Positions 1-448 of a DNA stretch of 448 nt are shown piece by piece. The translations under genes were made by a program, and so were the position numbers. Within the stretch, counting starts at the first letter, position 1, and the number at the start of each line of letters is the position of its first letter. The notes below the pieces were generated by a model that saw nothing but the letters and a program-made list of their open reading frames with translations, searched no databases and was not told the origin of the DNA. Source of the DNA: Escherichia coli (GTDB taxonomy: Bacteria; Pseudomonadota; Gammaproteobacteria; Enterobacterales; Enterobacteriaceae). The stretch lies in the NCBI RefSeq assembly GCF_003334335.1, contig NZ_QOWQ01000188.1; one strand, written 5' to 3'.

Positions 1-254
1 CGCCAGGCGTTGATCCCGGCGGTTTTGAGTTCTCTGGCTTTTTCCGGGCTGATGGATGGCTGTACATATTCTGCAATTTCACCGGCCTCTCCTCTCAGAC
101 AAGCGGCATAAATATCCCGCCCGTATGCTTCGGTATCGCTGGCTGTTGCAGTGAAAGGAACCGCCTGCTCAATGTGCTCAAACTTCACCATGCAATTCAC
201 AGCAGTGTGATCTTTATCTGCCCATTGCGGATTGCTTATTTTTTCCACATTCAT
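1..254 (-). CDS. 5' portion (first 84 codons, 3' end beyond the left edge) of a small acidic protein; candidate tail-fibre assembly chaperone (Tfa-like) by position, otherwise hypothetical protein
   Basis: Minus-strand ATG at 254-252 lies 6 nt downstream of AGGAG (265-261); an in-frame ATG at 260-258 directly abuts the SD (0-nt spacing) and is a less likely start. The frame is open to position 1. Translation from 254: MNVEKISNPQWADKDHTAVNCMVKFEHIEQAVPFTATASDTEAYGRDIYAACLRGEAGEIAEYVQPSISPEKARELKTAGINAW... Net acidic (about 13 D/E vs 8 K/R) with E. coli-like codons (CTG, GAA, AAA, CCG). The plus-strand frame over the same codons translates to a Cys/His/Phe-rich, low-plausibility peptide with no ATG or RBS. 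Tfa-like label is inferred from position next to a putative fibre tip; the N-terminus is not recognised by sequence. Confidence 0.6.
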   Translation of the reverse strand, partial: MNVEKISNPQWADKDHTAVNCMVKFEHIEQAVPFTATASDTEAYGRDIYAACLRGEAGEIAEYVQPSISPEKARELKTAGINAW

Positions 255-260
255 GTTCAT

Positions 261-265
261 CTCCT
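261..265 (-). promoter_or_regulatory. Shine-Dalgarno (AGGAG) for the downstream minus-strand CDS
   Basis: Plus strand 'ctcct' at 261-265 is AGGAG on the minus strand. Minus-strand context: TGA-CAGAC-AGGAG-ATG-AAC-ATG. It sits 6 nt before the ATG at 254-252 and 5 nt after the upstream stop. Confidence 0.55.
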
Positions 266-270
266 GTCTG

Positions 271-448
271 TCAGTATGCGCGCTGGAACAGCCCGATGCC
301 TTCATTGTCATTTGTCGACGTAATTTCATTACACACCATCCATGAGCCCGGAACTGAGGATAGGTTGCCGTCAATGCCATCGGTGTTAGCTTTCATATAG
401 TTTCCGTTTTCGTCTTTGATTAGGGCGCATCGCTTAAGGCGTGAACCC
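271..448 (-). CDS. 3' end (58 codons plus stop) of a larger gene whose 5' part lies beyond the right edge of the window; probable phage tail-fibre / receptor-binding protein C-terminal tip (function inferred, not recognised by name)
   Basis: Minus-strand frame is stop-free from position 448 down to the TGA at 273-271 (plus strand 'tca'). Translation N->C: GSRLKRCALIKDENGNYMKANTDGIDGNLSSVPGSWMVCNEITSTNDNEGIGLFQRAY*. 26 of 58 residues are N/G/D/S/T, with two Cys. A Shine-Dalgarno and start for the next gene follow 5-10 nt after the stop, i.e. an operon arrangement. Plus-strand frames 1 and 2 over this region contain stops. Functional label rests on composition and gene order only. Confidence 0.6.
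   Translation of the reverse strand, partial: GSRLKRCALIKDENGNYMKANTDGIDGNLSSVPGSWMVCNEITSTNDNEGIGLFQRAY

Follow-up and report, generated by a model that had tools for sequence, protein, structure and literature searches.

One question raised by a 448-nucleotide stretch of Escherichia coli DNA (contig NZ_QOWQ01000188.1 of RefSeq assembly GCF_003334335.1), here called the window and always meant at its full length, is what is encoded by the two minus-strand reading frames that meet within it, and how closely their products are tied to each other. An earlier note, made from the letters alone, had taken the pair for the junction of a tail-fibre gene and an assembly-chaperone gene in a phage or prophage of an enterobacterial host. 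We put a probability of roughly 85% on the window being the place where a collagen-like side tail-fibre gene ends and a small fibre-assembly chaperone gene begins in a lambdoid phage or prophage of E. coli. The cassette itself is an ordinary host-recognition module, already in public records. What is modestly new is the breadth over which the fibre tip and the N-terminal domain of the small protein are conserved as a pair without a Pfam family, together with the freedom with which the C-terminal module is exchanged.

The fibre gene and its setting

The first of the two frames occupies 271..448 on the minus strand and comprises the last 58 codons and the TGA of the side tail-fibre gene, with the translation GSRLKRCALIKDENGNYMKANTDGIDGNLSSVPGSWMVCNEITSTNDNEGIGLFQRAY*. 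This C-terminus is identical to that of the 496-amino-acid (aa) protein WP_106894451, which is encoded right after gpJ. In the full-length fibre of the prophage locus L001, Pfam places the prophage tail-fibre N-terminal domain PF08400 at residues 1-134 (E 2e-42), outside the window, and finds in addition four collagen stretches and PF03406. PF08400 is the domain by which such fibres are anchored close to the tail tip. The gene product is a collagen-like side tail fibre, presumably trimeric, whose last ~94 residues, for which Pfam has no family, are the distal tip and presumably bind the receptor.

The tail genes for which the earlier note had wanted the flanks inspected are indeed there. The prophage of strain 2013C-3033 runs through terminase, capsid, portal, tail tube, tape measure, L, K-like, I and J to the 496-aa fibre and the 193-aa product of the small gene. 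In L001, J lies at 14973-18503, the fibre at 18688-20178 and the chaperone gene at 20195-20776, and the order of J followed by fibre recurs in L005, L012 and L013, which is the late-operon position expected of an Stf-like gene, whether or not lom intervenes. A fibre placed after J, bearing PF08400 and PF03406 and followed by a small gene of a chaperone family, supports the junction as it was originally proposed.

Four E. coli phages that form plaques (PhiR12_5, PhiR5_1, PhiR5_2 and PhiR12_3) match the whole window by megablast at 98.4-99.8% identity; a literature search on them found nothing useful. The window is also present in 30 of 5,426 complete E. coli genomes (28 by another count, as prophages at that same identity), in the chromosome every time. 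Both genes entered GenBank in 2000, as ORF-401 and ORF-191 of the P-Eib phages. Where they overlap the window, ORF-191C, D and E of P-EibC, D and E show 98.9-99.3% identity with it, and some phage records already say tail fibre assembly protein.

A DUF4376 protein in the position of a chaperone

The second frame is open to the left edge of the window (translation MNVEKISNPQWADKDHTAVNCMVKFEHIEQAVPFTATASDTEAYGRDIYAACLRGEAGEIAEYVQPSISPEKARELKTAGINAW...) and belongs to a protein of 193 aa in full. The N-terminal domain (residues 1 to ~66), with ATG 254-252 as its start codon, occupies 57..254, and the linker with the beginning of DUF4376 takes up 1..56, both on the minus strand. In the L001 protein the match to PF14301 (DUF4376) extends over residues 73-183 (E 4.4e-20) and begins at window 38-36, such that only its first ~12 residues are inside the window. 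The expectation that a conserved C-terminal domain would lie beyond the left edge was thus right as to place and wrong as to family, since the domain is DUF4376 and not the Tfa domain Caudo_TAP (PF02413). Pfam reports PF14301 alone for the 193-aa protein and no Caudo_TAP match, and no NCBIfam model matches it.

The best PHROG match of the protein is a tail family (E 2.5e-78). One PHROGs family covers it over the full length, three only from ~62 to 193, and one family of 358 aa only residues 2-77, a pattern that shows the protein to be modular. Its AlphaFold2 (AF2) model, with a predicted local distance difference test score (pLDDT) of 92, has a small beta N-domain of three strands and a helix, and a helical domain with hairpins. 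Judged by domain and gene position, the 193-aa protein is a member of the DUF4376 chaperone family, presumably Tfa-like in its working and not a Caudo_TAP member. DUF4376 proteins of this kind have been studied elsewhere. The one encoded after the fibre gene of Alteromonas phage V22 is required for an active fibre (PMC7289586, PMC10579305), and another is required for the H-fibre of the Campylobacter prophage CJIE1 (PMC7882524). In V22 and A5, both Alteromonas systems, the DUF4376 proteins co-purify with the fibre, and the fold of these chaperones is reported to resemble intramolecular chaperone domains (T5 pb1, K1F).

A chaperone variant of 217 aa (P0023) carries an exact tandem duplication of the 26 residues FEACIRGDAGPVGEYRANDDMAVEEA, which takes in the last part of the N-domain as well as the linker.

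The fibre tip as a protein family

The tip has a recognisable signature, the fibre C-termini of PB1, Andromeda, phiP27 and Aeromonas PVN02 sharing with it the motifs (V/I)G(S/T)Y, GSxL, PGTW.C.G and LF.R(V/I/A). From alignments and the list of C-termini, the local version of the family motif PGTWRCMG is PGSWMVC (331..351, minus strand), and the extreme C-terminal motif, with the consensus TLW/F-x-R-I/V-S/A, is here LFQRAY (274..291, minus strand). Between the conserved GSxL and PGTW motifs lies a variable loop (403..423, minus strand), seen in the alignment with PhiR5_2: all five in-window differences from that phage sit in these 21 nucleotides, three of them nonsynonymous (L>I, E>A, N>S) and two silent.

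The tip profile, searched against 1.84 billion representative proteins, matched 372 clusters; the proteins that carry the tip range from 65 to 1,729 aa. In 148 of the 150 matches listed the tip lay at or adjoining the C-terminus; the exceptions were one low-complexity match in multiple stretches and one that is apparently shortened. The only PDB sequence with the tip is Pa193 gp47 (9B45), which is modelled only over residues 1-350. An AF2 monomer model of the tip is all-beta (pLDDT 84) and found no counterpart in a structure search of the PDB, perhaps because the native tip is a trimer of intertwined chains. Matches of the tip profile to KIR/PirB immunoglobulin domains (E 6e-4 to 0.04) were carried by the short motif GT(W/Y)RC.G and were treated as chance. 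This motif, to which PGSWMVC at window 331-351 corresponds, does resemble the immunoglobulin F-strand motif, which is probably chance or convergence.

Coupling of the tip to the N-terminal domain

How, then, is the tip related to what follows it? Searched by tblastn, residues 1-72 of the small protein matched 379 phage records, mostly of PB1-type Pseudomonas myoviruses, its C-terminal 121 residues 29 records and the tip 8. In each distant relative inspected the N-domain is found in the small gene directly 3' of the fibre gene, namely in gp47 (142 aa) after fibre gp46 of PB1, in gp40 (117 aa) after fibre gp39 of Andromeda, in L57 (188 aa) after fibre L56 of phiP27, and in a 134-aa product after the 627-aa fibre of PVN02.

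As a less biased test, eight long and diverse fibres were picked by the tip domain alone, their contigs were fetched and the downstream gene was checked. All eight are followed by a gene for 126-203 aa that starts -4 to +22 nt from the fibre stop, and a hidden Markov model (HMM) of the N-domain matches the product in seven (E 2e-18 to 1e-8); the eighth protein has no HMM match and shows by eye a WIDCEIEH..YGWIPYT pattern as in two others. The C-halves of these eight proteins are diverse: five have no Pfam family, and the remainder have Caudo_TAP (in a P1-like element), DUF4376 (in a P2-like prophage) and Phage_tail_APC.

The P1-like case is instructive. In this 143-kb element (L016 4626-5051) a window-type N-domain at residues 4-63 is joined to a Caudo_TAP C-half at 69-127, and the tip of the accompanying fibre is in the tip family of the window. 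The converse arrangement is found in a control, the 223-aa E. coli DUF4376 protein P0092, the C-domain of which is 76% identical, with a different N-terminus and an unrelated tip upstream; neither the tip HMM nor the N-domain HMM matches this protein or its fibre. The N-terminus of P0092 is 42% identical to Mu U and matches the Mu Tfa N-domain in the PDB (5YVQ_B) at E 9e-20. P0092 was seen on 273 contigs (L010; L011 4001-4672).

The statement in the earlier note that the N-terminal part of such chaperones co-varies with the fibre tip is thus borne out by seven of the eight tip-chosen fibres and by the P0092 control. On these alignments and profiles, the N-domain (the first ~66 residues, wholly in the window) is a module of its own that moves with the tip across sipho-, podo- and myoviruses, while the C-half is swapped. 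All four pairings of the two N-domains with the two C-domains exist, which argues that DUF4376 and the Tfa C-domain do the same job despite the lack of detected profile homology between them. A more far-reaching proposal, which we hold only tentatively and think rather less likely than its opposite, is that the tip (~90 aa; GSxLR ... PGTWRCMG ... TLWLRIS) and the N-domain (~65 aa; PFTA ... D.E.HGR.IY ... G..G.I) form one ancient, uncatalogued docking pair. This pair would have moved as a unit through lambdoid siphoviruses, 933W- and T7-type podoviruses and PB1-, P1-, P2- and T4-like myoviruses, and would have acquired, as partners, no fewer than three unrelated C-terminal trimerisation modules. 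No Pfam family was found for the six tips tested or for the N-domain of the 193-aa protein, and neither has a solved structure.

Exchange and mosaicism of the cassette

That this junction is exchanged horizontally, as the earlier note held from other phages, is apparent from the occurrence of the same cassette, at 98.9% nucleotide identity, in two tail architectures, one of the J-type siphovirus kind (L001, L005) and one 933W-like (L002). In L002 the fibre follows an SU10-adaptor-type protein (compared stretches L002 10217-12776 and L001 18688-20776). By BLASTP the L001 and L002 fibres are ~84% identical over the stretch that begins in the collagen region and extends to the C-terminus, leaving aside insertions and deletions of collagen repeats, which include 21 residues immediately ahead of the tip. 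The N-terminal regions align weakly (31% over 90 residues). The collagen repeats are probably a recombination substrate.

The chaperone gene is itself mosaic past the left edge of the window: the C-domain of PhiR12_5 is 90.9% identical as against 99% for the N-domain, the differences from the L001 protein clustering near residues 120-155 (L005 5195-5776 against L001 20195-20776). No sign of an invertible segment had been seen within the 448 nucleotides, and this holds for the surroundings also, where no recombinase is annotated between J and the L001 prophage end and the only inverted repeat in the 9.5 kb around the fibre is a 24-nt one with 79% match inside J.

Reading frames and translation signals

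The fibre frame ends in ...VPGSWMVCNEITSTNDNEGIGLFQRAY (...GLFQRAY), the stop TGA at 273-271 being read directly from the minus strand. In keeping with the first description of a large minus-strand gene with a C-terminus rich in N, G, D, S and T, these residues make up 45% (26/58) of the final 58, ~3 standard deviations above expectation; their share in an average E. coli protein is roughly 28%. The small frame is acidic, as had also been noticed, its isoelectric point being 4.85 over the 84 residues that the window contains and 5.0 over all 193.

Between the two genes lies the spacer CAGACAGGAGATGAACATG (255..270, minus strand, by direct reading), which contains the strong Shine-Dalgarno sequence already remarked on, AGGAG at 265-261, and is without differences among three aligned sequences. 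Two in-frame ATGs are available to the small frame, at 260-258 (10 nt past the fibre stop) and at 254-252 (16 nt past it). The second seems the likelier start, because it leaves a 6-nt gap to AGGAG, because RefSeq and GenBank annotate it and because homologues begin M-K/N-V/I-E/D-K-I at the equivalent methionine. The claim that the small frame begins within 10 nt of the fibre consequently stands for ATG 260 and fails for the likely start, with its 16-nt spacer. The small gene is probably translated off the same late transcript as the fibre by means of its own AGGAG.

Both minus-strand frames look coding. Plus-strand frames are all of at most 49 aa, and promoter-like or terminator-like matches in the window were no better than in shuffled sequence. 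An Rfam scan of the window gave as its sole match Mu-gpT-DE, over the ribosome-binding site and start (252-276, minus strand), at 16.6 bits as against a gathering score of 49 (E 0.32); being far under threshold, it was taken as chance.

Points against the chaperone junction and alternative readings

Several observations weigh against the interpretation given so far. In comparisons of DUF4376 with Tfa (lambda Tfa, Mu U and U', and the L016 protein) hhalign gave a probability of 7.7%, on shallow alignments. The tip beside P0092 has no BLASTP similarity to Mu S or S', so that resemblance between N-domains need not extend recognisably to the tips. Phages that carry an insertion in the chaperone gene, described below, were nonetheless isolated as phages, on K-12 or E. 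coli C, from which it follows that those hosts can be infected without the cassette or the side fibre; lambda side fibres are likewise dispensable on K-12. The literature searchable holds no experiment on the E. coli 193-aa protein or a close relative, and in PHROGs the families that match carry the label 'tail fiber protein', with which a structural role is compatible.

The last of these points bears on the possibility that the main role of the small protein is structural, the protein sitting in the virion as a cap or adhesin on the distal fibre tip and aiding receptor binding. We regard this as unlikely, although it has more in its favour than the PHROGs label. PMC12390725 states, with reference to North and Davidson 2021, that in Mu and P2 Tfa is retained by the virion and binds lipopolysaccharide. 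The A5 chaperone remains bound to its fibre in high salt. On the other hand, V22 gp27 readily separates from the fibre, and the PB1-type protein is absent among the virion proteins modelled for Pa193, in whose virions it is reported not to be found (PMC12390725). Such a role would moreover be compatible with that of a chaperone, adding to it rather than replacing it.

Less probable still is that the prophage is defective and the cassette a decaying relic within it, with neither gene working in the source genome. Four related phages do have the chaperone gene interrupted. In PhiR12_1 a ~2.6-kb insertion sequence (IS) with two genes (a transposase and an ATP-binding helper), which we take to be IS21-like, splits it near codon 32; it lies at L003 5290-7866 and corresponds to window 160-168, with the 8-bp target duplication CAGGCGGT. 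PhiR12_2, 2_star and 4 show the same split pattern of matches. An apparent recombination breakpoint at query position 289, suggested by four phage records that match only 1-289, proved to be this insertion with its target duplication. Decay might also be read from the many partial database entries for the family and from the lack of any 100%-identical record in the collections searched (phage records and the 5,426 complete E. coli genomes). Against it, both frames are intact across the window, the viable phage PhiR12_5 differs from it by a single base, and substitutions relative to a 60%-identical homologue of the chaperone part are concentrated at third codon positions (codon positions 1, 2 and 3 differing in 25, 25 and 61 of 84 codons, with 29 silent changes).

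Further genes lie directly after the cassette. In 2013C-3033 the 193-aa gene is followed by a YadA-type (Eib) gene, ORF-156 and an S6 autotransporter gene (Eaa), with the chromosomal potB shortly beyond Eaa and one small gene between. These passengers, in which eib encodes a YadA-like immunoglobulin-binding adhesin, are found at L001 21469-27496 and at L004 970-7324, and have signals of their own.

The pairing of ORF-191 with eib recurs, ORF-191 preceding eibA, C, D and E in the P-Eib phages and its counterpart lying upstream of eib in the prophages L001, L012 and L013, so that one might suppose the small gene to be tied functionally to eib, for example as an export helper. We consider this very improbable: the fibre is always within 16 nt upstream whereas eib is ~360-750 nt further on, and both domains have homologues beside the fibres of phages in which the loci sampled contain nothing eib-like. 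Finally, a polymorphic toxin C-terminal domain with its immunity protein, the alternative that the earlier note had itself named, deserves almost no credence, since it shares with the locus only the generic layout, in which a large protein with a variable C-terminus has a small acidic frame close behind it, while the large protein is a collagen-like fibre with a prophage tail-fibre N-terminal domain right after gpJ, the families of the small protein are phage tail families, the pair recurs in tail modules of every tail type, and no toxin or immunity family was found in Pfam, PHROGs or NCBIfam.

A possible assembly mechanism and its implications

With the fibre-assembly chaperone as the preferred reading, the gene identities, gene context, domain architecture, co-occurrence and modular shuffling observed here can be set beside what is described for related systems. 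In the Mu Tfa/Pam3 gp25 model, an N-terminal beta domain binds the distal fibre and a helical C-domain trimerises, assembly proceeding from the C-terminal end (for Pam3, PMC9608196). Similarly, for a PB1 relative an AlphaFold3 3:3 model puts a direct homologue of the N-domain on the distal tip (PMC12390725). By analogy with the Mu, Pam3, V22/A5 and PB1-type systems, from which we infer binding, trimerisation and the order of events, the small beta-rich N-domain (residues 1 to ~66) would dock on the tip of each fibre chain and the helical DUF4376 C-domain would gather three such chaperone-fibre pairs. Given this docking and gathering, trimerisation and folding would begin at the distal end and zip toward the collagen shaft, and the chaperone would afterwards depart or remain as a cap. 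The same analogies would govern the stoichiometry, the timing and any retention of the 193-aa protein in the virion. On this scheme the shaft and the C-domain could recombine freely, and the tip and N-domain would be inherited or exchanged as one unit because each must fit the other.

For genome scanning, the identification is correct but routine and opens no new question. For those retargeting phages or tailocins, the junction defines which tip and chaperone to move together, the minimal matched unit being, on these data, the tip with the first ~66 codons of the next gene and the C-half of the chaperone being interchangeable. The RefSeq name 'DUF4376 domain-containing protein' could become 'tail fibre assembly chaperone' where the gene stands in a fibre context. 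Should the ancient docking pair prove real, it would offer a portable unit for fibre engineering, and DUF4376 and the Tfa C-domain would be functional analogues and not homologues.

Comparison with known systems

The nearest relatives by gene are the oldest records. The EPclC-type fibres (Ghosh et al. 2012, PMC3368898) and ORF-401/ORF-191 of the P-Eib phages (AF151091, AF151674-6) are the same genes as those of the window. EPclC proteins consist of PfN, two collagen domains and Pf2, followed by a C-terminal region that is distinct, and the P-EibA ORF-401 is among their members (PMC3368898); these sources gave no function for ORF-191 or for the EPclC C-terminal region.

Among chaperones with experimental support, V22 gp27, A5 gp9 and the gene after the CJIE1 H-fibre share with the small protein the PF14301 C-half, a size of ~190-240 aa and the position right after the fibre, and their type of module, like that of the window, is common to phages of different tail types. 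The similarity to the Alteromonas chaperones is too low for tblastn, no Alteromonas record having been matched with the C-terminal 121 residues, and the client of the window system, unlike theirs, is a collagen-like lambdoid side fibre. The PB1-type protein is the counterpart at the other end. The N-terminal ~61-65 residues of PB1 gp47 (PBanzai_048, a putative assembly chaperone; PMC12390725) are 48-51% identical to the window protein, and the tip family (GSxL, PGTW.C.G, LF.R) and the gene position are the same. It differs in its short helical C-half without DUF4376, in its length (142 as against 193 aa) and in belonging to virulent myoviruses.

The classical Tfa proteins, lambda Tfa, Mu U/U' and P2 G, resemble the window protein in gene position, in size and in the combination of a fibre-specific N-domain with a common C-domain, and have traded modules directly with its family (a window-type N-domain with Caudo_TAP, and a Mu-U N-domain with DUF4376). 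Unlike them, the window protein lacks PF02413, shows no profile similarity and has no match among PDB sequences to 5YVQ, in which Mu Tfa was solved together with its fibre, and unlike the Mu, P1 and e14 systems its locus is outside any invertible segment. In Pam3 gp24-gp25 (PDB 7YPX, PMC9608196) a ~55-residue N-terminal beta domain sits on the distal fibre and is connected by a linker to a helical trimerisation domain, in a 3:3 complex. There is no match to Pam3 at the level of sequence, PDB profile searches with the window family not having returned 7YPX, yet the layout of gp25 is the one that the AF2 model predicts for the window protein.

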